This document shows positions 1,131 through 34,826 of a stretch of DNA of 64,000 bases, one piece after another (within the stretch, counting starts at the first letter, position 1; the number at the start of each line of letters is the position of its first letter). Made by a program: the position numbers and the translations under genes. The DNA lies in contig CALXXW010000024.1 in assembly GCA_944392785.1 (NCBI GenBank), positions 9,744 through 73,743 of the forward strand, read 5' to 3'. This DNA comes from an uncultured Alphaproteobacteria bacterium. Lineage in GTDB: Bacteria; Pseudomonadota; Alphaproteobacteria; CAAHEQ01; UBA3637. Under the pieces are notes generated by a model, which was not told the DNA's origin, made no database searches, and saw nothing but the letters and a program-made list of their open reading frames with translations.

Positions 1131-1596
1131 AAGCCCCCGTGTTCTGTTGCTAGGCCCCGGGGAAACCCCACCCGAACGCTCAAAAAATGTTCGGGGATTG
1201 ATTGGTCATTTCAGACGCTTAATACTAAGCGGCCAAAGCGACCGGAGCAAAATTATCATTTGCATTTATTTTTTTTAGCGCGATAACGGTGCTACCATGC
1301 CGGATACAAGAGAAAACCTTTACTATGCGTGTCGATCCTGTTTCACCCCCGAAGGCTTTTTTGGTGGAGGTGTCGGGTACCGCCCCCGAGTCCACTACAT
1401 CTATTCCGCTTTTCGTTTAGCATCATAGTCAGCTTGAAACTGACAGAATCATTATATCAGAGCTTTCCTCAAAAGGCAAGAGAAAAATCTTTCAAAACAC
1501 AAGACCATGGGAGAGTGACTGTCAACAAGACAGAAAGAAATCCGTCTTAGTTCTCCCTTTGAACATGGCCGCTGTCACATCAAGCCAATAAGTCTT

Positions 1597-5039: not shown

Positions 5040-5986
5040 TTTAAGCCTCCTTTCAAAAGCAAGGGTTGTCGCATACGATCAGACAAGCTTTCGGCCGTTA
5101 GCGATATCAAAGGAACGGTTTCCATCGCATCTGTCATCAAAGCGGCCAGCGGTATCTGTAATCGATAAGCTATATTCAGCAAACAACCCAAACGATGGAA
5201 AGAATCCGCAAACGTGCCTATTAATACGGTTTGTCGAAACACCAAAAAAGGCTTGACCTGAGCCAAAGCTTCTGATGCATTAAGCCCCAACGAAACCGTC
5301 AACTCAGCCACAGCATCCGATAGATTTGCTGCCAGTTCATGCCAAGTTGTCAATGCTGTCTTTTCTTTTCCTAACTGTCCTGTTGTATCAACATAAATGC
5401 GCCTGTCCGGTGAAATACGCCGCACCAAAAACGATACCTCTGCCGCCGTTTCTGCCGTCAACACCGGCACTTTCAACAAACTGCAAAAAGCCGTCAAATG
5501 TTCCACCGAACCGGGGCGTTTATCTAGCGTAATAACCGTCGCCGGCTTCTTGGCCAATGTATCGGCAACAACCTGTTTTAACAAAGCTGTTGTCTTACCG
5601 CTGGCCGGAGGCCCCATCAAAAAACGGATACGTTCTAACGGTTGTGTAAAGGTCAACAACTGCTCCCAAGCGCTTGCCAGCACATCTTCTGTCGGAAGTT
5701 GAAATCCCTGTTGAAGTCGATGAAGAACATGGCGTGTCAAACTTTCCGATACGCCATGTCGTTTGAGTAAAAGTTGAATAACGGTATTTTGGTTCGGTGT
5801 TTCCTGTCGTCCCAATGCTTTTTTTAAATCCATATCCGATGTCGCATACGGTAAAGCCCCTATCAAACGAATGCGCCCATCGGGCTGACGTTGTGAAGAA
5901 ATAATCACAGCCGCGGCTCCCAACGAGTTGTGGATTAAATCCATCGCTTCAGGAATAGAGGCCGAAACAACCGTTTTCATTCGCAT
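5036..5986 (-). CDS. flhF: flagellar biosynthesis SRP-like GTPase FlhF. The start is set at Met50 of the tracked ORF so that it does not overlap the upstream gene.
   Basis: G1 LMGPPASGKTT, G3 VDTTGQ, and the position between fliF/G and flhG. An SD-like AAGGG lies upstream of the ATG at 5986..5984. Confidence 0.7.
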   Translation of the reverse strand: MRMKTVVSASIPEAMDLIHNSLGAAAVIISSQRQPDGRIRLIGALPYATSDMDLKKALGRQETPNQNTVIQLLLKRHGVSESLTRHVLHRLQQGFQLPTEDVLASAWEQLLTFTQPLERIRFLMGPPASGKTTALLKQVVADTLAKKPATVITLDKRPGSVEHLTAFCSLLKVPVLTAETAAEVSFLVRRISPDRRIYVDTTGQLGKEKTALTTWHELAANLSDAVAELTVSLGLNASEALAQVKPFLVFRQTVLIGTFADSFHRLGCLLNIAYRLQIPLAALMTDAMETVPLISLTAESLSDRMRQPLLLKGGLK

Positions 5987-5991
5987 ATTCA

Positions 5992-7929
5992 CTACCCTTT
6001 TGTCGCAAATGGCGATATTTTTTTGTGATAAATCAATTCTTGCGCCGTTTTGGTAATGGTTGTTTGTGCTCGTTCGATATCGCTCAGACGCGGAGCGCGC
6101 ATTCGTTCCGATTCGCGTATCAAACCGGCCCATACCTGAGGCGGCATATTACGCGCGAAGGCATCACGTATCGCCGTTGTTGCCCCCCGCAAAGCCAAAG
6201 CCGCCATATCACGATTCGTGTGCCGTAAAACCGTCTGAATAGCACTATCCGGCCAGCGCGCAATATCATCAAAACAAATCATGTGATACGCTATTCGCTC
6301 GGCCGATTGAGGTGAGTCACGGTACATATCCGCCATCAATTTTTCTTCACTGGTATGATCCATGGTCCGCAAAATGTCAGAGGCTTTTTCACTACCGGAT
6401 TTAAACCGCGCCTGCAGCATCAATGTATGCAGCTGCTGTGTTAAATCTTGTTCTAATTTCAATCGTTCGGCCGCCGAGATATGCTCTAACTGAGCCAACG
6501 CCTCTAATACCTTAGCGGCTTTTCCGTCAGACAGCAAACTAAGCACTTTGGCAGCCTTGTCATTTGTTAGGTGGTAAAGTATCAAAGCGGTCGTTTCCGG
6601 TTTTTTAGCTTCCAGATAACGCGCCAAAATGGATACATCCAATCGTTGTAATCTTTCCCAAATACTTTCATCACGTCCGCTACATGCCACTTCCATCATC
6701 ATGGCGGCACTTTTTTCCGGTGAGAATACATCTGACAAAACCTGTCGCACACGCGCCTCTGTTCCAAACAAAGCAACAGGCTCTTTAACGGAGCGAATAA
6801 ATGCGCTCAAGACAGAGCGAACACTCTCTGCCGGAACGGCACCCAGTTGGCTCATTAAACGTGACAACGTCCGCACTTCCATTTCGCTGAGACGATGGAA
6901 TATATCACGAATGGTCGTCTCCCCCAAAGCCAGCAATAAAATAGCGGCTTTTTGTTGAGCCGTATACTCTCCGTTGCGGTGGTTTTTGGGGCTGGGTTCA
7001 TATAACCAGTTTTTCAAAAGGGAAAGCGCGGTCTCCGGTTTTTCTCGAAAAAAGCGTTGGATAGCCAGAATATCAGAGGCACTCGGCGTCCGAGCCGACG
7101 AAAACCCGCCGCGTTCTGTGCCCTTCTCAAGCGGCTGAAGCAACGATGCCATCATCGGAAAAATAAAGTGAATCAGCAAAAAAAACGTCAACAACAAACA
7201 GGCGCCCAACAGCACAAAGCGCACCGCCATTTCAACAGACACGGTACGCCAAAAGGAAGGGGGTGCCGCAAAAGGCATATTCTGAATACTTAATGTATCT
7301 CCACGCTCCGGAGAAAAACCGATTAACGCCTCAACCAACTGACGATAGCGTTGCATTTCGGCCGCACCGCGGGGTTGATAAACATAATCTCCGGTTCCTG
7401 TCTTTTTTTGAATACCGTCAATCAAAATACTAACGGATAATCGTTTAACGGCTCCCGAGATGGAAGTCGTTTCTTCGGAGCGTGATGCAACATCATAAGA
7501 GGTTTCCTCTTCTTTTACAACCGACTCATCCACATAAGCCGGTTGTTCCTGCTGACGCATCACCTGACGAACAGCGACTTGCGTGTCGGCCAGTGGCTCT
7601 CGTTTTTGGCGTGTTTCCTGTTGCAAATCCAGCTCTACCTGCACGGTTGCTTCCACATGTCCCTTTCCCAGCGTTTTTTCCAACAAAGCGATGATTTGGG
7701 TCTGAAGGGTATCGGCATAGCGTTGTTGTAATAAAGCATGTTCGGAAAATGAACCGTTTTCCAAGTGCGATAAAGAGGCCGTTTCATTCCAAGAAGCACG
7801 GGGGGTCACATCTGATAAACGCACAAAAGCCGGCACAACATATCCGGCAACGCCCAACAGCGTGGCGGATAGTATCACGACAGCTAATAATCGTATCAAC
7901 TCAGAAGTTTTTATCACGCAATGATACAC
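5992..7929 (-). CDS. fliF: flagellar MS-ring/C-ring fusion protein: a shortened FliF (TM1, RBM3-like periplasmic part, TM2) fused to a full FliG-like domain
   Basis: TM at the N-terminus. A FliF ring-building motif region (ATVQVELDLQQETRQ ... KRLSVSILIDG ... FSPERGDTLSIQN) is followed by a second TM (VRFVLLGACLLLTFFLLIHFIF). Next come ~370 aa with FliG N/M/C-like armadillo segments (QKAAILLLALGETTIRDIFHRLSEMEVRTLSRLM; ALILYHLTNDKAAKVL; C-terminal torque-helix-like region). It is a single uninterrupted ORF with a GTG start directly after an in-frame stop. Confidence 0.7.
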   Translation of the reverse strand: MYHCVIKTSELIRLLAVVILSATLLGVAGYVVPAFVRLSDVTPRASWNETASLSHLENGSFSEHALLQQRYADTLQTQIIALLEKTLGKGHVEATVQVELDLQQETRQKREPLADTQVAVRQVMRQQEQPAYVDESVVKEEETSYDVASRSEETTSISGAVKRLSVSILIDGIQKKTGTGDYVYQPRGAAEMQRYRQLVEALIGFSPERGDTLSIQNMPFAAPPSFWRTVSVEMAVRFVLLGACLLLTFFLLIHFIFPMMASLLQPLEKGTERGGFSSARTPSASDILAIQRFFREKPETALSLLKNWLYEPSPKNHRNGEYTAQQKAAILLLALGETTIRDIFHRLSEMEVRTLSRLMSQLGAVPAESVRSVLSAFIRSVKEPVALFGTEARVRQVLSDVFSPEKSAAMMMEVACSGRDESIWERLQRLDVSILARYLEAKKPETTALILYHLTNDKAAKVLSLLSDGKAAKVLEALAQLEHISAAERLKLEQDLTQQLHTLMLQARFKSGSEKASDILRTMDHTSEEKLMADMYRDSPQSAERIAYHMICFDDIARWPDSAIQTVLRHTNRDMAALALRGATTAIRDAFARNMPPQVWAGLIRESERMRAPRLSDIERAQTTITKTAQELIYHKKISPFATKG

Positions 7930-27461: not shown

Positions 27462-30400
27462 TTAAAACCATCCGGTTGAACGATTACAACTTCCCGTTAA
27501 CCAGTTATAGTATCGACCCTTACAAGCCTGACAAGATTCATACGAGGTTTGTGTATCTCTTTTCTCCGTGCATGCCACACACTTGTTGGCGCTGGTTGAA
27601 AAGAACTGCCCTGTCGGACAAACACATGTTTTCCCGTTGCCGAATCCTTGCCCAGAGGGGCAAAGACGACACCTCTTATTATACCAGTAGCGCTGAGGAC
27701 ATTTTTGACACTCTTCCCATGTTGTATTGGACGCCGCTGATGATAACGAGCAAAGAGCACACATATTCGTTCCATAGAAAAAGCGATTATCACAAGACGA
27801 ACATTCGTCCTCGGTGGCTCTGATAGTTCCGTTAACCGAGCAGGATTGACATTGATTGGAAGTATTCAAAATTTCCCCAGCCGCACATGTACATCCCAAC
27901 CCATCTGAGGTAGCATTTGTGCCGTTGGGACACAGGTAGGACCGAGCATCCGATGGTTTCCAATAACGATTAGGACACTGCCGACTTTCATCCTGTGCAA
28001 CGGCTATAGCCGATGTGTAGTCACAAGAAATACAGGCTCCATCCGAAGAGCGCCACAGACGCTCACCCTGACCACAAGACATACATTCGGCTTGCGTTGT
28101 CGCATGACTTGCTGTTTTACTTGTACAACTCAAGCATGTATTCGCCGCATAGGAAAAATACTGGCCCTCCGGACAAACACATCCCAGCCCATCCGCTGTT
28201 GCCTTTGTTCCGCTGGGACAAATATAGCTATACCCCTTATCCGATCGCCAATAACGATTGGAGCAACGCCGACTTTCTTCATATGAGGCCTTAATGGCTA
28301 CGGAACGGCTACACAGCGAACACGTATCATCGTCGGCTAAAAAGCGTATATTATCTCCACAACCATGGCAAGCGGCCTCAGTGGTTTTAGGCGTATTTGA
28401 TGCGGCACACAAATACGATTTACCATCCTCTGCAAAATAGCGTTTCCCTATGCCGCAGCTGGCACTTGCCTGCTCGGATGAGACAACGGCCGTTGTGATA
28501 TCACAATCAACACATGTTTTATTGCTGGCATTAAAGAAAGTCTCTCCGGCAGAACAGGAACACGAAAGCCCATCTTCTGCCACCAAAGAACCATTCGGGC
28601 ATAGGATGCACCGATCCGTCTGCCAATAACGATTCTGACATGTTTGACAGGCCTCTAACGTCGCATAGCGATTGACCGTATCCGCACAAGAATAGCACTT
28701 ATTATCTTGCGCCGAGAAAAACGCATCTTGCGCGCATCCGCTACAAACAAGGCCGTCTTCACTGGTTGTATTGCCGGTGCATACCAGGCACATATTGTCC
28801 TTTTCTCGCCAATATCGACCTTCACAGACATGACAAGCCCCAAAAGTGGCTTGTTTCGATGCCGTATTTTCACAAGGATAACACTTGCCGTCAGCATAGG
28901 AAAAATACTCGCCCGCCGGACAAACGCATCCCAACCCATCCGCCGTTGCCTTTGTTCCGGTGGGGCACATATAACTATACCCATTATCCGATCGCCAATA
29001 GCGATTTTGACACCGTTGCGAATTTTCCAAAGATGTCGCAAATCTTCCCGTGTATTGACACGCATAACACTGATTCTTGGACGACAGCGTCCGCACATTC
29101 GTCCCACAAGAGAAACAAGCCTCGGCTTCTGTGACAGGATAAGAGGTTGTTTGGGTACATAGATAGGAATAAGAGTTGCTAGCCATATAGCGCACGCCCG
29201 TACCGCAACTGGCACTGGCATCGGCATAAGTCAAAATCGCTGTCGTAGTATCACAAGCCGCACAAACTGTCGGCTTTGCTTGATTAAAGAATGTCTCACC
29301 TATCGAGCAAGAACAAAACAATCCATCTTCAGAGCCTATTCCACCCTCACCACACAGCATACAAGAATTATTTTTCCAATATCGATTTCCGCAGGCTTGG
29401 CACTCAGCCAAGGTTGTTGTCCGAGCCCGAGTCTCTGAGCAGGGATAGCATTTATTGTCGGCATAAGAAAACATATACCCTTCGTCACACTCACAGGCCT
29501 CTCCGGATTCCGAAGCCTTCATTCCGGTCGGGCAAAGGCGACATTGTCCTGTTTTGCTTTCCCAATACCGATTGTCGCACATTTGACACTCTTGAAGCGT
29601 TGAGACGACTTTCTTCGTATTCGTGCATTTGAAGCACGCATTATTTGCCTGAGCGGTAAACCATCCCGGACATGAACTGCAACTGAGATTCTCTGCCAGA
29701 ATGGTACTTTCCTTCAGTTCACTACACGAATAGCAACTTCCATTTTTATCCATTAAATGATTTGTATCTTGGCAAACACATCCCGTTCCCTCCTCATTGG
29801 GACGAGCCGAATAAGCACACGAGTAGCATGTTCCATCCGTATCCATCCAACCTTTTTCCAAATCGCAGACACAAGATTGCGTTTTTTCATCCCATATGGC
29901 TCCGATTGTTTGACACCGATGACAATTCGGGTACTCACCGAAGAAGTAGATCTGAGTGTTGCACTCACATGTTTGTGTTTCCGCATTATAACGCCCGGCA
30001 CGATATTCGGCCGAATAAGCAGGAGAGGAAACGGTATACACAGCCTCAGGACACATACTATCACAGGTTTTTGTGTCATAATTCCAAGCTTGATCTGCAC
30101 CGGCACATAACTGACATGAACCATCGGCTTTGGTATAATAGCGAGCGGCTTCATTACAGACGCATTGCCCATCTTTTTCCGTAAATCCCTTCGATTCATC
30201 ACATCCGGGCAAGCGACACCAGTTATTGATCATTTGAAGTCCCTCAGGACAAGCACATTCACCATTACTTTGTATCACCTGTCCCCGATCACAGAACCAA
30301 TCGCAACGCCCGTCTTGTTTTTCCTTTCCAAAGGGACATACACAATTTTCATCGGCATCAATCAAGCCACAGATATTTTGTCCCAATGCTTTTTCCGGAT

Positions 30401-32267
30401 CTCCGAACACACACATATTATTGCTGTCACAGGAAGCACCTTCTACCGGACACTTGTAGCCTACAATTTCAGATTGTAGAGAATAGGAAATGTTAACTTC
30501 TGTCGAACCAGTTTCAGTACACGCGCCGGTATACACCCATGTATTCGGAGAATTGACAGCATAAACTCTGGAACCGGCAGAACATCCGACAGCATTCATA
30601 TCAATATAAACCGGAAATTTCAGTGTATAATTGGCATATCCGACTTGATGAATCGTATCATCCGTATAATGCCCGCCGTTCGGCATGTCATTATAGGTAT
30701 TGTATTGCGTACAGCGACAACCGGATAATCCATAGTCATAGTTGTGATACCCATTCCATCCGTCCAAGAATCCGACCCGAATACGGCCTTCTAACGTATC
30801 GACACGTACCCATTTATCATGCTCGGTGCAGAAGACCATATTCCCATTGGCTGTGAAGGGTTCAGAGTTCGGGATACACGCAATTTTTTCACAAGCCCCC
30901 AAACGACCATAATATCCTTTCTTTGTATCACATATACAAGCCTGTGTATCCGGATCATATATGGCATCATCCGGGCACTTAACACATCCGTTAGCCGTTA
31001 AGTAATATCCATTGGCCGTATCACAGATACAAGCACCTGTTGCATCTGTTATATATCCAGCTTCTTGAGGACATTGACAAACACCGGCTTCATTCTTTTT
31101 AGGCAGAACACACATACAAACGCCGTTGACGATTTCAAACCCCAAAGAGGTATCACACACACATTTTCCATCTCCGTCCAGATAAAATCCATTCTGCGTA
31201 TCACACGTGCAGATACCCTCCGGTGAACACATCTCATAACTATCGCAATCCTCTTTCTTCAGACATTCAACGCATTTTTTGATTGGAGCCCCCGTTGTGT
31301 TATCTGTTCCATCGACTAAATAAGGCCGCTCTTTAGGGCATAGGCATTGATTTTGAAAGCCGTCTTTGATAATCTCTACAAACCCATATTGAGTGGGACA
31401 CACACATTGATCTCCTGTATCCAAATAATTGGATAAACAAGCACATTTCTGAGCCCCTGTCAGCCCTGCAGCACCATCCATTCGGTCGGGGTCCGTACAT
31501 TGACACGCACACGCATACGGATCCGGATACATATGCTGAGGATTGTCACATGCCGGCACTTGCGCTGCATCAAACACGCATAATCCCCCTATTTCAACCG
31601 AGCAATCCGGACACCCCGAGGTATTGTTATCCGACGGGTATCCCAGAGCATCCGTAAAAACAATCCCCACATCCAACGTCTCTTCCTCTTCGTCTATACC
31701 CCCCATGCAAATCCGACGCACGATGCTTTTGTCGGCATCATCTTTAATCTGACTTTCCGACCAAACCATAAAAGGCTCCCGTGGCATCTGTTGCATGGGT
31801 TCCAGCAACAAAACATAATCGTATGAAATGTTGGACAGTAAAATATCTGAGCAAATTTTCGTGGAAAATTGATTCAAATTAACGATCATGCCACGGCCAT
31901 CTTTCAACATACTGGCCGATAAAACCGTATCCCCGACGGACGCTTGAAAGGCTTCTTTATATTGAGAGCCGGTATATGCCGGAACATCTGAAATATAACC
32001 GTCCCGATTTAATAAATGAAGCCATTCAAGCTCTACCTGTTCCTTTTCTGAAAGAGCACGATAATCAGCCTGTTGCTGCTCTAAATAATGTCCCGTCACG
32101 ACACCGGCTACCGTTTTAGAAATTAAATCTTCTACCGTTGCAATTTCATGTTTGCGGTTGGAATACTGCCACCCCCAAAACACGGCTATGGATAAAAGCC
32201 CTATTAAAAACAATACAATTAAAAGCTCGGTCGTGGTTGTCCCTTTTTCATCTGTCTGTTTTAACAT
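27462..32267 (-). CDS. giant (1601 aa) type IV prepilin-like protein with a huge cysteine-rich tandem-repeat ectodomain (ephrin-receptor-like / furin-like / VSP-like repeats)
   Basis: N-terminus MLKQTDEKG|TTTTELLIVLFLIGLLSIAVFWGW, which is a class III (prepilin peptidase) signal: short basic leader ending in Gly, Glu at +5, and a ~20 aa hydrophobic helix. AGGAGA SD 6 nt upstream of the ATG at 32267. The remainder carries ~250 Cys in repeated units such as CxCDTxxGYYL..GxC, and also C.NRYW....Y.CP.GT.AT.DGLGC.CP.G.YFSY. TAA stop verified at 27462. Confidence 0.8.
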   Translation of the reverse strand: MLKQTDEKGTTTTELLIVLFLIGLLSIAVFWGWQYSNRKHEIATVEDLISKTVAGVVTGHYLEQQQADYRALSEKEQVELEWLHLLNRDGYISDVPAYTGSQYKEAFQASVGDTVLSASMLKDGRGMIVNLNQFSTKICSDILLSNISYDYVLLLEPMQQMPREPFMVWSESQIKDDADKSIVRRICMGGIDEEEETLDVGIVFTDALGYPSDNNTSGCPDCSVEIGGLCVFDAAQVPACDNPQHMYPDPYACACQCTDPDRMDGAAGLTGAQKCACLSNYLDTGDQCVCPTQYGFVEIIKDGFQNQCLCPKERPYLVDGTDNTTGAPIKKCVECLKKEDCDSYEMCSPEGICTCDTQNGFYLDGDGKCVCDTSLGFEIVNGVCMCVLPKKNEAGVCQCPQEAGYITDATGACICDTANGYYLTANGCVKCPDDAIYDPDTQACICDTKKGYYGRLGACEKIACIPNSEPFTANGNMVFCTEHDKWVRVDTLEGRIRVGFLDGWNGYHNYDYGLSGCRCTQYNTYNDMPNGGHYTDDTIHQVGYANYTLKFPVYIDMNAVGCSAGSRVYAVNSPNTWVYTGACTETGSTEVNISYSLQSEIVGYKCPVEGASCDSNNMCVFGDPEKALGQNICGLIDADENCVCPFGKEKQDGRCDWFCDRGQVIQSNGECACPEGLQMINNWCRLPGCDESKGFTEKDGQCVCNEAARYYTKADGSCQLCAGADQAWNYDTKTCDSMCPEAVYTVSSPAYSAEYRAGRYNAETQTCECNTQIYFFGEYPNCHRCQTIGAIWDEKTQSCVCDLEKGWMDTDGTCYSCAYSARPNEEGTGCVCQDTNHLMDKNGSCYSCSELKESTILAENLSCSSCPGWFTAQANNACFKCTNTKKVVSTLQECQMCDNRYWESKTGQCRLCPTGMKASESGEACECDEGYMFSYADNKCYPCSETRARTTTLAECQACGNRYWKNNSCMLCGEGGIGSEDGLFCSCSIGETFFNQAKPTVCAACDTTTAILTYADASASCGTGVRYMASNSYSYLCTQTTSYPVTEAEACFSCGTNVRTLSSKNQCYACQYTGRFATSLENSQRCQNRYWRSDNGYSYMCPTGTKATADGLGCVCPAGEYFSYADGKCYPCENTASKQATFGACHVCEGRYWREKDNMCLVCTGNTTSEDGLVCSGCAQDAFFSAQDNKCYSCADTVNRYATLEACQTCQNRYWQTDRCILCPNGSLVAEDGLSCSCSAGETFFNASNKTCVDCDITTAVVSSEQASASCGIGKRYFAEDGKSYLCAASNTPKTTEAACHGCGDNIRFLADDDTCSLCSRSVAIKASYEESRRCSNRYWRSDKGYSYICPSGTKATADGLGCVCPEGQYFSYAANTCLSCTSKTASHATTQAECMSCGQGERLWRSSDGACISCDYTSAIAVAQDESRQCPNRYWKPSDARSYLCPNGTNATSDGLGCTCAAGEILNTSNQCQSCSVNGTIRATEDECSSCDNRFFYGTNMCALCSLSSAASNTTWEECQKCPQRYWYNKRCRLCPSGQGFGNGKTCVCPTGQFFSTSANKCVACTEKRDTQTSYESCQACKGRYYNWLTGSCNRSTGWF
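27810..29315 (-). repeat. intragenic tandem duplication (~750 bp unit, 2 copies, diverged but with locally near-identical stretches) inside the giant Cys-rich gene
   Basis: The protein module CSCS(I/A)GETFFN...NRYWRSD(N/K)GYSY(M/I)CP(T/S)GTKATADGLGCVCP(A/E)G(E/Q)YFSYA... occurs twice ~251 aa apart. Opposite-strand shadow ORFs at 28013..28294 and 28766..29134 are ~80% identical to each other at a ~750 nt offset. Confidence 0.7.
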
Positions 32268-32277
32268 TTTCTGTCTC

Positions 32278-33978
32278 CTATTCGTTTTCGGGTGGTATAT
32301 ACATCGGCCAATTGCCTTGAACAACATCATCTAATGACTGCAAAGAGGCCCCCATTAAAGACCTGTAAATCCAATAATTGACGATGATACGCTCAACAAA
32401 ACTGCGTGTTTCCTTAGAAGGAATACTTTCCAAGAACAATAACGGATCATCGTTATAGTTCATTTTCTTTTTCCATTTCATCAAATTTCCCGGCCCGGCA
32501 TTATAGGCAACCGCCGTAAAAATCAAATTATTCTGCACCGCCTCCGATGCCATCAAACGCAACAAATAATTTTGCCCCAAAGCCAGGTTATAAGCCGGTT
32601 CTTTCAGCTTTTGTCGCTTCCAGGGCATTTGTAAAAGCGCCGCCTGCTCCCGTCCCGTCTGAGGCATAATCTGCATCAACCCCAATGCCCCCATGGCACT
32701 TTCGGCACGTTTATTAAAACAAGACTCCTGCCGCACAAAGGCAAAGACCAGCGCTTTGTCCACCTTCCATCCATCCTGAGGCGTCCAATTAGGAGCCGGA
32801 TACCGTGCCTCATCCCCATTTAATGTTCCCGCAATTCCCAATAAATCATCCGCAAAACCATTTTTTTGCGAAATCATCAACAAAATACCTTGAGCTTCTG
32901 TATCTGCCTCCAGATACAACTTAGCCAACTCTTTTTGGGCCCACTCATCTGCACCGATTTGTCGCAAGGCATAAAAGCGTGTCAAAGCCGGATGAGAAAA
33001 ATCTCCGATAACATCATCACTGGGTGTTGCCGGTTCATCCCAAACATGAGACAAATCTTGTCCCAACATGCGCATCGCCAGCAAGCCATAGAACGTCCGA
33101 GGGAAAGAGGCTGCCTGCTCCAAATAAGCCCCCACCGCCTGATATTTTCCCTGTTTTAAAAGAGAACGAGCCGCCCAAACCGCTCCGGCGTTTTTAAGCA
33201 ACGGGTAAGCCGTTTTTGCCTTTGCCACCTTTTCAAAGTAATCCCCTGCCTGCGGATAATTTTCCTGTCGCCATGAGACCAATCCGGCTGTCCACCAGGC
33301 TAACGGGATTTCCATTCCAGAATCCAAAACCGGTCTTAACTGTTCCATCGCCAATAAGTCGGCATCATCTATGAAATATGAAAAAGCCAAGGCTGTACGC
33401 GCCAATAATAAATCTCTTTTTGACAACAGTTTTTTGGTCGTTTTCTCTTCGATAACACGTTTAGCATTTAACGTTTTGCCTGCCAAAATATAACGTTCGA
33501 TTTGACGCATAATCCGTTGCGCCTTTTGACGATTAGCCGCATTTAGATAGGAAAAAGATAATCCGCGAATCAAATCAATCGGCTCGATACGTTGAACACC
33601 CAAACATGCTCCTGAATTTCCGCCGAAAATACCGCGCGGACGCGGCGGCAATTTAGCTTTTTTTTGAACACCCAAGGCATAGACATCACTGGCAACGGCC
33701 AGATCACTGTATTTATTCAACCAATTGACGATCTCTGTCCCTTTTGTGCGGTATCCTTTTGAAAAATAACGATCGTATAAAACATATCCCATCAACAGTT
33801 TATCTTTTATTGTCCCCTCGACTTTTTTAGCCGTCTTAAAATCATTTGCTTGATGCGCCTTTAGGATCCGCTGATAGGCGGCGACATCCCTATCGCTCAA
33901 AATAGCCGGCCCCGCCACCGTCGGCAAGGCAAAGCCCAAAAGCAAAAGGATATGACAAATAAAATGAATGACGCGCAA
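32278..33978 (-). CDS. slt: soluble lytic murein transglycosylase (Slt70-like; superhelical N-domain + family 1 LT domain)
   Basis: Signal peptide. The catalytic ES motif in VRQESCFNKRAESAMGALGLMQIMPQTG, and AYNAGPGN. Its TAG stop at 32278..32280 overlaps the SD of the giant prepilin-like gene, 10 nt before that gene's ATG. Confidence 0.85.
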   Translation of the reverse strand: MRVIHFICHILLLLGFALPTVAGPAILSDRDVAAYQRILKAHQANDFKTAKKVEGTIKDKLLMGYVLYDRYFSKGYRTKGTEIVNWLNKYSDLAVASDVYALGVQKKAKLPPRPRGIFGGNSGACLGVQRIEPIDLIRGLSFSYLNAANRQKAQRIMRQIERYILAGKTLNAKRVIEEKTTKKLLSKRDLLLARTALAFSYFIDDADLLAMEQLRPVLDSGMEIPLAWWTAGLVSWRQENYPQAGDYFEKVAKAKTAYPLLKNAGAVWAARSLLKQGKYQAVGAYLEQAASFPRTFYGLLAMRMLGQDLSHVWDEPATPSDDVIGDFSHPALTRFYALRQIGADEWAQKELAKLYLEADTEAQGILLMISQKNGFADDLLGIAGTLNGDEARYPAPNWTPQDGWKVDKALVFAFVRQESCFNKRAESAMGALGLMQIMPQTGREQAALLQMPWKRQKLKEPAYNLALGQNYLLRLMASEAVQNNLIFTAVAYNAGPGNLMKWKKKMNYNDDPLLFLESIPSKETRSFVERIIVNYWIYRSLMGASLQSLDDVVQGNWPMYIPPENE

Positions 33979-33989
33979 AAGATTTTCTC

Positions 33990-34826
33990 CTAAAACGGAA
34001 CATATTGTATGCGAGATTTACAATCCTTTTCGGATAGCTCTCCCACCTGACATATTTCCACTTCCATTTTGGGCACTTCCAAAATATGTTCACATGCCAC
34101 ACCGTTTAAATTGATGGCTTGACTTTGCTTTCCCTTCTTTGCGACACCGGAAAATGACAAGTTCACTTTTTGTGTTCCGAAAGTCAAACTAACGGACAGT
34201 TGCTTTATCTCCATCGGTAATTGATTTTCCAAGTTCATGGTCCCGCTGCAAAACGAAAAATTACGCGCCGGAGGCAAGGTATTTGAAACATTATCCAAAA
34301 CCAACAGCACGCGTCCTTTATCCATATTTGTTTGTATTTCTGACTCGTCTGACTGGGCTGCCAACATATCAAAAGCCTCATCTAAGTCAGCGGCTTGTGT
34401 CAAGTCGGCGGCAGAATCCACACTTTCTTCGGCGACATTTATCAATCCCTCATCGACTACGGCATCGGACCCGAATATAGCAATCATCGAATCGCTGGCC
34501 GTTCGAGAAGGAACACGTGCGGACGGTTGAGCAACCGCAGATCCGGCTGCGGGCAAAGATGTCTTTTTTGATGTTTTTTTGGGGGGCAAGGGTGTCGGCC
34601 CTGACTGTTTTGAGGGTACTTCATTCACGACGGGAGCCCTTTGGGACGTTTGTCGGCCCATCTGTTGAGGTGTAGTCGGCTGAATCACAGATGTTTTGGA
34701 TGCGGCATTTTCTAGCTGAGAAGAGCTTCCCGACGACCGCACGACCGCCAAATCAGGGAACAAAGCTTGAGCCCGTACATCACCAACGGCAATCACACAA
34801 ACCAGAAATCCCAAAATATATCGCAT
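33990..34826 (-). CDS. secreted low-complexity (Ser/Pro/Thr/Ala-rich) protein of unknown function
   Basis: Signal peptide MRYILGFLVCVIAVGDVRAQA, a long low-complexity linker, and a C-terminal ~100 aa globular part. No recognised motif. Confidence 0.45.
   Translation of the reverse strand: MRYILGFLVCVIAVGDVRAQALFPDLAVVRSSGSSSQLENAASKTSVIQPTTPQQMGRQTSQRAPVVNEVPSKQSGPTPLPPKKTSKKTSLPAAGSAVAQPSARVPSRTASDSMIAIFGSDAVVDEGLINVAEESVDSAADLTQAADLDEAFDMLAAQSDESEIQTNMDKGRVLLVLDNVSNTLPPARNFSFCSGTMNLENQLPMEIKQLSVSLTFGTQKVNLSFSGVAKKGKQSQAINLNGVACEHILEVPKMEVEICQVGELSEKDCKSRIQYVPF

Follow-up and report, generated by a model that had tools for sequence, protein, structure and literature searches.

The window analysed here, a stretch of 64 kb, carries on its minus strand a giant gene whose cysteine-rich product ends in a long array of tandem repeats. 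We consider it likely that this array contains an ancient higher-order tandem duplication, situated in the C-terminal rod of a disulfide-rich extracytoplasmic protein of 1601 residues from an uncultured, host-associated gut alphaproteobacterium and fixed in the sampled alleles, and that the protein itself is a modular subunit resembling type IV pilins. The open reading frame (ORF) at its greatest length spans 27462..32330 of the minus strand, and its upstream ATG at 32330 was not taken as the start. The ATG at 32267 was preferred because AGGAG at 32275-32279 sits 7 nucleotides (nt) before it and because independent gene calls in four alleles/other assemblies gave 1601 amino acids (aa). Residue numbers refer throughout to this form. 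The gene and the parts of its C-terminal array are:

27462..32267, minus strand: giant gene, 1601 aa, 155 cysteines (9.7%), start codon ATG at 32267, stop codon TAA at 27462-27464
28818..29570, minus strand: block copy 1, RYW units U1-U4, aa 900-1150, delimited by a unit hidden Markov model (HMM) and pairwise comparison
28062..28817, minus strand: block copy 2, RYW units U5-U8, aa 1151-1402, collinear with copy 1 at 52% aa identity
28893..29006, minus strand: putatively homogenised patch in U4, aa 1088-1125 (NRYWRSDNGYSYMCPTGTKATADGLGCVCPAGEYFSYA), 89% nt identity to 28146-28259
28146..28259, minus strand: partner patch in U8, aa 1337-1374, 89% nt identity to the U4 patch
27465..28061, minus strand: tail of the array with half unit U8h, U9, half unit U10h, U11 and partial U12, without a collinear partner in block 1

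The unit HMM was seeded on one unit and iterated on the giant protein itself. It resolved the C-terminal 700 residues into about 12 tandem "RYW" units of about 62 residues plus two half units. The units follow the pattern R-Y-W ... C-x2-C ... CP-x-G ... G-x2-C-x-C ... C-x2-C with a periodicity of about 31/62 residues. Pairwise comparison yielded three consecutive reciprocal best pairs, namely U2/U6 (56% identity), U3/U7 (40%) and U4/U8 (66%), compared to 21-50% for the other pairs; U2/U6 and U3/U7 are atypical units, unlike any other. The array therefore contains a collinear higher-order block of four units. Its two copies are 52% identical across 248 aligned residues, with a period of 249-251 residues, and the z-scores of the unit and block matches are 8-14, computed with the cysteines held fixed. 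Self-comparison of the DNA gave an off-diagonal at 747 nt with 55 of 60 matching positions; taken across all offsets, the median was 25 and the 99th percentile 32. A repeat search found 113 nt at 90% identity. Because the off-diagonal lies far above the background, the duplication U1-U4/U5-U8 is genuine and not the result of chance. Tandem Repeats Finder reported nothing within the giant gene, as the copies are too diverged.

A sequence-only reading of the window had proposed a tandem duplication of about 750 nt in the frame 27810-29315 and had expected an off-diagonal at this distance, which is indeed seen. The duplication is real, albeit overstated and placed about 250 nt too low. In the proposed frame the first ~175 residues of each copy align, whereas the remainder needs gaps of 14 and 17 residues and leaves an overhang of 32 residues. 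The frame is misaligned because U8 precedes a half unit and U9, both of which lack a partner in block 1. The quoted copy starts CSCSIGETFFN and CSCSAGETFFN are present 251 residues apart, and NRYWRSD(N/K)GYSY(M/I)CP(T/S)GTKATADGLGCVCP occurs twice at a distance of 249 residues (747 nt), with 27/30 and 33/38 identical residues. The shorter cysteine repeats that had been noted upstream exist as well.

The "long near-identical DNA segments" of that reading, by contrast, come down to the single patch of 38 codons (114 nt; 28893-29006 versus 28146-28259), which has sharp edges and an nt identity of 89%. Codon by codon, the nt identity is about 40-65% across the block and about 50% outside the patch, and the longest exact run between the copies is 17 nt. 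Outside the patch, the proportion of synonymous differences (pS) is 0.79, and identical amino acids are encoded by the same codon in 41 of 94 cases (44%), compared to the 43% expected from the codon usage of the gene. Synonymous sites outside the patch are therefore saturated. It follows that the duplication dates far back and that its copies were not homogenised, unlike repeats that recombine often. Within the patch, the same codon is used in 25 of 32 cases (78%), compared to 42% expected (Fisher p = 0.0009). The patch probably stems from a short gene conversion at a later time, and it covers a motif conserved in the protein as well. It contains about 7 synonymous differences in 38 codons, and since pS is about 0.3 between the patches compared to 0.02 between strains, the conversion event itself would be old. 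Ongoing conversion was sought among the single-nucleotide polymorphisms (SNPs) between strains, and no sign of it was found. The sole SNP that matches the paralogue affects aa 1103 (Thr/Ser); three of the four alleles contain Ser, and the Thr of the window is therefore derived, which reflects divergence and not conversion.

The alleles were collected by means of a k-mer search that covered 5.8 billion clusters (about 15 billion proteins). The close relatives form one cluster, in which four sequences from several samples can be told apart: P0001, P0064, P0065 and P0063, the last of which is identical to that of the window. Each comprises 1601 residues, and they differ at 44 polymorphic sites, with no indel and no change of a cysteine. 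Three alleles are collinear in DNA overall: locus L001 is 99.1% identical to the window over 24.8 kb, with no indel in the giant gene, and L004 is collinear with the window as well. A shorter or longer near-identical protein that had lost or gained a 250-residue block was not found in the collection searched; a protein with an altered block would surface either within the cluster or as a match of high identity outside it, and a length variant is therefore absent from it. For the whole gene, the ratio of non-synonymous to synonymous polymorphism (pN/pS) amounts to 0.30-0.39, and for U1-U8 to 0.25-0.28, compared to 0.13 for twelve neighbouring genes pooled (small counts). The giant gene is thus under purifying selection, with a constraint that is two to three times more relaxed than that of its neighbours. 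A signature of diversifying selection was not found in U1-U8 or in the whole gene (pN/pS < 1; small counts).

The N-terminal part of the protein comprises two further features:

32178..32267, minus strand: class III (prepilin-like) signal with the leader MLKQTDEKG, TTTTE with Glu at +5, and a hydrophobic tract of ~21 residues
31572..32267, minus strand: N-terminal pilin-like domain of ~232 aa, with a predicted helix of ~50 residues, a beta-sheet head and the pair Cys139/Cys187

A class III signal (IPR012902, TIGR02532) consists of a hydrophilic leader ending in Gly or Ala and about 21 mostly hydrophobic residues with a Glu at position 5 (PMC8179133). The N-terminus of the window protein, MLKQTDEKG followed by TTTTELLIVLFLIGLLSIAVF, fits this definition. 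G-x4-E and the hydrophobic tract are present in 15 of 17 homologues; the other two begin within or after the tract, their leader being missing. The consensus of the homologues (thirteen plus P0003, P0007 and P0017) is a hydrophilic leader with [ES/T]G followed by R[ST]M[LV]E[IM]L-VL-I-G-LS. Its Glu is invariant and its Gly is at least 90% conserved in sequences that are 26-40% identical, and Cys139/Cys187 are conserved too (alignment A3). In a profile search of the PDB with the N-terminal domain, type IV pilins (geopilin, PilA, PilE, CFA/III, TcpA, MshA) made up 10 of the 13 listed matches including the eight best, with weak E-values of 0.004-1.8. Type IV pilins have an alpha-1 helix of ~50 residues that projects from a globular beta-sheet head, in many cases with a C-terminal disulfide. 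An AlphaFold2 model of the domain, which was calculated from a 12-sequence alignment, has a predicted local distance difference test (pLDDT) value of 78.6 and a predicted template-modelling score (pTM) of 0.74; it contains a helix at residues 8-58 and a beta-sheet head. The top Foldseek match in the PDB is the pilin TcpA (8uhf_B), which is weak (E 0.17, probability 0.69, template-modelling (TM) score 0.45/0.52); the rest is noise. The thresholds of curated HMMs were not reached: N_methyl (PF07963) gave an E-value of 0.57 and 10.3 bits compared to a cutoff of 21.2, and the NCBIfam models PRK10506 (prepilin-peptidase-dependent protein family; E 0.006), GspH (0.03) and ComGE (0.04) were far under their cutoffs. 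Judging from these matches and models, a modular pilin-like protein is the most likely reading, the best one albeit unproven.

These findings are consistent with the following course of events. A single duplication of a four-unit block (~250 aa, ~750 nt), for which unequal recombination or slippage involving adjacent units is the most likely cause, would have given rise to U1-U4 and U5-U8. The copies would afterwards have drifted to 52% aa identity with saturated synonymous sites, while the patch would have been re-homogenised by a short gene-conversion event. At present, the block behaves as a structural element of the rod that is stable, unlike a contingency repeat. The prepilin-type leader and the pilin-like head would anchor the protein either to the inner membrane or to a type IV filament's tip, and the cysteine-laddered rod of more than 1300 residues would face outward for binding, together with a non-repeat "mid" domain. 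Most likely, the protein is an adhesin of modular, pilin-like build whose growth proceeds by duplication of blocks. The block duplication itself is ordinary repeat-protein evolution and not a variation switch.

Several observations weigh against this interpretation. U1 and U5 are not a reciprocal best pair, and a three-unit duplication plus one extra unit is possible because U1 is slightly nearer to U4 and U8. Only four alleles with an aa identity of about 98% were available, all of them on short contigs or in metagenome-assembled genomes (MAGs), and rare copy-number variants are possible. Conversion in the patch is not cleanly separable from selection, since the motif TG-T-x-ATADGL-x-C is also kept in the distant homologue P0005. 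The pilin assignment combines sub-threshold sequence matches with a weak fold match (Foldseek E 0.17), the residue at +1 after the Gly is Thr or Arg and not the usual Phe, Met or Leu, and genes for a prepilin peptidase (peptidase A24), a secretin or PilB/PilC-type proteins were not found in the 64-kb window or beside the homologues.

The last three points are also what one would cite for the strongest competitor, according to which an ordinary Sec signal-anchor, left uncleaved, forms the N-terminus, and the protein would be a periplasmic or surface rod tethered to the membrane, with no relation to type IV filaments: neither the N_methyl model of Pfam nor the pilin models of NCBIfam reach threshold, pilus genes are absent from the window and the surroundings of the homologues, and the +1 residue is atypical. 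We nevertheless regard it as unlikely, given that Gly(-1) and Glu(+5) are kept across homologues of 26-40% identity, that the prediction adds a helix of ~50 residues and a beta-sheet head, next to a conserved Cys pair, and that pilins dominate the PDB profile matches (10 of 13, including the eight best) and provide, with TcpA, the top fold match.

A second alternative concerns the patch. Strong purifying selection on a functional site, e.g. a ligand-contact loop present twice, might have kept the 38 residues similar without any conversion. CP-x-G-T-x-A-T-x-DGL-x-C is found again in U9 and in P0005, a distant homologue, and U8 is free of amino acid polymorphism across the four alleles, both of which would suit such a site; the partner copy U4, however, has 4 polymorphic sites. 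Moreover, protein-level selection predicts no synonymous conservation, whereas the synonymous positions of the patch are kept too (78% versus 44% elsewhere and 42% expected, p = 0.0009), and its edges are sharp in the DNA. Selection as the sole cause is therefore improbable, and a gene-conversion tract is preferred.

Still less probable is active variation, as put forward in the sequence-only reading: the copies would be a substrate for unequal crossing-over by RecA, and the array would expand or contract appreciably often, which would lead to length or antigenic variation of a surface domain. The direct tandem orientation, the 114-nt patch at 89% identity, a homologue with a perfect 691-nt repeat as an instance of the process within the family, and a pN/pS two to three times that of the neighbours can be adduced for it. 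In E. coli, recombination has a minimal efficient processing segment, or MEPS, of about 25 base pairs (bp). For the present locus, the longest identity is 17 nt and the sole similar patch of 114 nt has 11% mismatches; judged by its sequence, it is therefore a poor RecA substrate. Minimal identities (MEPS) of >40 bp have been reported, and the frequency of recombination drops log-linearly with divergence, tens of bp of identity being needed (PMC4824099). Together with the saturated synonymous sites outside the patch and the fixed copy number, this argues against RecA-driven expansion or contraction at the locus today. Likewise, antigenic or length variation disagrees with four alleles of 1601 residues each that contain no indel, with the absence of a length variant among 15 billion proteins, with a pN/pS of 0.25-0.28 in the blocks and with the retention of every cysteine. 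The comparison of copy number and selection between strains that had been suggested as a check yielded an invariant number and purifying selection, which is largely the outcome that the sequence-only reading itself had held to speak against its proposal. As a mechanism of variation the repeat consequently deserves little weight, the duplication being old and fixed; the gene exemplifies how a diverged higher-order repeat may be taken for a contingency locus.

Hardly credible, finally, is the view that there was no block duplication and that a convergent or parallel Cys scaffold produced generic RYW resemblance with an accidental 250-residue period: all units are 25-50% identical with equal Cys spacing and U1 is about equally near to U4, U8 and U5, but the three consecutive reciprocal best pairs share order and register (56, 40 and 66% versus 21-50%), they include the atypical U2/U6 and U3/U7, which resemble no other unit, the z-scores were obtained with fixed cysteines, and the order U2-U3-U4 is kept as a supermodule in other family members.

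This family was delineated by an exhaustive phmmer search with aa 1-1200 against 1.84 billion cluster representatives. The giant protein is one of about 60 detectable relatives in this set: 60 hits were obtained, 13 of which share the first ~230 residues. Alignment A4 shows that P0005, P0006, P0007 and P0012, which stem from other alphaproteobacterial MAGs, keep the U2-U3-U4 supermodule with its cysteines invariant, and with it the atypical units whose C-x2-C has another residue in place of its first Cys, e.g. YSYLC. The window contains two supermodule copies, and P0005 and P0006 (the latter annotated as hypothetical protein, Alphaproteobacteria bacterium) contain up to five or more. These numbers were determined with a non-iterated HMM; the iterated HMM drifted to generic Cys repeats (P0034, P0011) and was not used. 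The gene of P0007 (L005 320-3325; MAG GCA_964369135.1) possesses a perfect direct repeat of 691 nt with a period of 795 nt and a four-unit block, which would be either a very recent block duplication or an artefact of MAG assembly. The differing supermodule numbers and the L005 repeat support four-unit block duplication as the family's mode of changing rod length over evolutionary time. To that extent, duplication as a mechanism of length change stands for the family, but not for this locus now.

Beyond the four alleles, the only k-mer match was P0002, a lipoprotein with DUF5874 and DUF6273. A k-mer homology search with a profile of the N-terminal domain returned 4 proteins, and the giant protein, scanned against the GTDB genomes, had no relative there. 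The family is rare and essentially undescribed, and the RYW repeat lacks a Pfam model. In L088, a second large ORF (5432-7735; 767 aa) with an equal prepilin-like N-terminus (KINEIGRSMVEMLGVLAVTGVLSV) is located directly upstream of P0003. Since the two adjoin, the family would occur as tandem paralogues in at least one genome. P0004, P0009 and P0025 carry ordinary signal peptides and no pilin-like head, which indicates that Cys-repeat modules may have been shuffled between different carriers. Furthermore, P0034 resembles a ciliate surface antigen, P0011 is a mosaic of 2942 residues, and some distant phmmer hits look eukaryotic.

A wider proposal is that these proteins form an undescribed family of very large modular type IV pilin-like proteins in uncultured host-associated Alphaproteobacteria. 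A prepilin head would be combined with interchangeable eukaryote-like rods (RYW supermodules, DUF5874, GCC2_GCC3-like, vWA), rod length would be set via four-unit block duplication, and the products would serve gut symbionts as filament-tip or envelope-spanning adhesins and be the largest pilin-type subunits known. We put this forward tentatively, as a possibility that is on balance doubtful. If the prepilin-like head is functional, the idea of modular pilins extends to Cys-rich cargos of 1000-2000 residues in poorly known gut Alphaproteobacteria, and the 691-nt repeat of L005 offers a natural series for studying rod growth via block duplication.

The concept of modular type IV pilins, among them S. 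sanguinis PilB/PilC, CofB, TcpB, ComZ and GspK, is set out together with a survey in Raynaud et al. 2021 (PMC8179133). In common with them, the giant protein has a Gly-ended hydrophilic leader, Glu at +5 and a hydrophobic tract of ~21 residues, as well as a large non-pilin C-terminal module; a long N-terminal helix and a small beta-sheet head are predicted for it; P0013 of the family even carries a vWA-like DxSxS segment, like PilB. In contrast, its 1601 residues include a cargo of about 1370 residues, whereas the most multi-domain case of the survey has 860 residues and 12 repeats (PMC8179133). The cargo here is a cysteine-laddered rod absent from Pfam, the thresholds of pilin HMMs are not reached, Thr or Arg occupies +1 in the family, and no filament machinery was seen near this locus in the window or near its homologues.

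In the AlphaFold2 model of U2-U4 (pLDDT 84.6), each ~31 residues form a beta-hairpin and a short helix. Foldseek matches of the rod in the PDB were all weak and comprised Cys-rich domains of TNFR1, OX40, megalin EGF, Pfs25, EphA4 and ErbB4 (best E 0.024, TM 0.21-0.24); neither half of the protein had a sequence match in the PDB. According to these models, the rod belongs to the general class of disulfide-laddered rods, but not to the TNFR, furin-like or EGF families. It shares with eukaryote-type rods, such as the TNFR cysteine-rich domains, furin-like/ErbB Cys-rich regions and ephrin-receptor-like GCC2_GCC3 repeats, tandem units of ~30-40 residues, paired C-x2-C / C-x-C motifs and a predicted beta-hairpin ladder. 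Further rods of this type are formed by the CXXC repeats of Giardia variant-specific surface proteins and of ciliate surface antigens. The repeats of P0003, P0009 and P0010 look like Ephrin_rec_like/GCC2_GCC3 by eye, the recorded support being a faint precomputed Pfam match for P0003. The giant protein differs from eukaryote-type rods in that neither its sequence nor its fold matches them significantly (Foldseek E >= 0.02, TM <= 0.24; Pfam none at E <= 10), in its bacterial host, and in the RYW motif and the 62-aa/four-unit hierarchy, which are specific to its family.

Adhesins whose identical repeats vary by recombination, such as streptococcal alpha C/Rib, staphylococcal SD-repeat proteins and Bap/Esp, have repeats that are near-identical in DNA, and their copy number varies between isolates. 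The giant protein resembles them in being large and exported and in having tandem direct repeats of hundreds of nt. Its copies, however, are about 50% identical in nt sequence (89% over 114 nt only) and invariant in number.

Between the N-terminal domain and the blocks, three regions can be distinguished:

30858..31562, minus strand: Cys-repeat region A, aa 236-470, ~31-aa repeats of the DUF5874 type (PF19202, E 3e-9)
30393..30857, minus strand: non-repeat "mid" domain, aa 471-625; kept in P0003 and P0004, and more polymorphic between strains than any other part
29571..30392, minus strand: Cys-repeat region B, aa 626-899, degenerate C-x-C / C-x2-C units running into the RYW array, with unit HMM matches

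Scanned alone, region A passes the gathering score of DUF5874 (PF19202) with 37.5 bits compared to a cutoff of 27.1; the whole protein scores 21 bits and region B matches weakly. It is the sole family match: Pfam and NCBIfam gave nothing for the RYW region, and a Pfam scan of U1-U8 remained empty even at E <= 10. Region A thus likens the giant protein to DUF5874 proteins, whereas the duplicated RYW blocks have no DUF5874 match; DUF5874 is without known function, and a literature search for DUF5874 / PF19202 found no paper. The "mid" domain is among the best-matched stretches in P0003 (41% identity to the query over all stretches) and P0004 (39%). Between strains, its pS is 0.058, compared to 0.007-0.03 elsewhere in the gene (two to three times higher), and codons are replaced at several nucleotides at once at aa 515 (TCC to CGG) and aa 588 (TCG to GCA). 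The raised pS and these replacements suggest an imported recombination tract or a hotspot.

Two further features adjoin the giant gene:

32278..33978, minus strand: gene of an Slt70-like lytic transglycosylase (slt), directly upstream of the giant gene (Pfam SLT 1.2e-23, PRK11619 4.8e-34)
27422..27457, no strand assigned: inverted repeat AAGCGCTCC ... GGAGCGCTT, directly past the stop codon and between the convergent giant and GT4 genes

The inverted repeat is a possible candidate for a bidirectional terminator. The stop codon of slt overlaps the AGGAG ribosome-binding site of the giant gene; slt and the giant gene are therefore probably co-transcribed. Upstream of the giant gene, slt is accompanied by orf278, which encodes a signal peptide followed by a low-complexity region rich in Ser, Pro and Ala; both of them (32278-34826, minus strand) are probably co-transcribed with the giant gene. 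Mpl and LdcA of peptidoglycan recycling lie divergently next to orf278/slt. On the other side, a GT4 glycosyltransferase gene (26280-27401, plus strand) converges with the giant gene. Its nearest NCBIfam models are SdgB with 81 and SdgA with 77 bits, compared to a cutoff of 800, and in this adjoining, distantly similar enzyme the locus resembles those of SD-repeat adhesins. SdgB and SdgA are adhesin O-glycosyltransferases, and it is pure speculation that the GT4 enzyme might glycosylate the Ser/Thr-rich giant protein.

The window was placed in the Alphaproteobacteria because it encodes a two-piece (permuted) transfer-messenger RNA (tmRNA) of the alpha type at 1132-1483 (minus strand; 229.8 bits). 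No sequence in GTDB is more than 73% identical to the SecA of the window, and the nearest ones come from uncultured gut and rumen alphaproteobacterial MAGs, which allows placement at the class level only. A foreign origin of the region was rejected, as the G+C content is uniform (44-49%). Elsewhere in the window, a 645-residue ORF at 5992-7929 (minus strand) combines a FliF C-terminal domain (aa 83-220) with complete FliG N, M and C domains (aa 323-638) and is followed by FlhF-like and MinD/ParA-like genes. A 635-residue equivalent exists in a related MAG (L088 385-2292). The ORF has the appearance of a natural fusion of FliF and FliG in which the FliF part is shortened.

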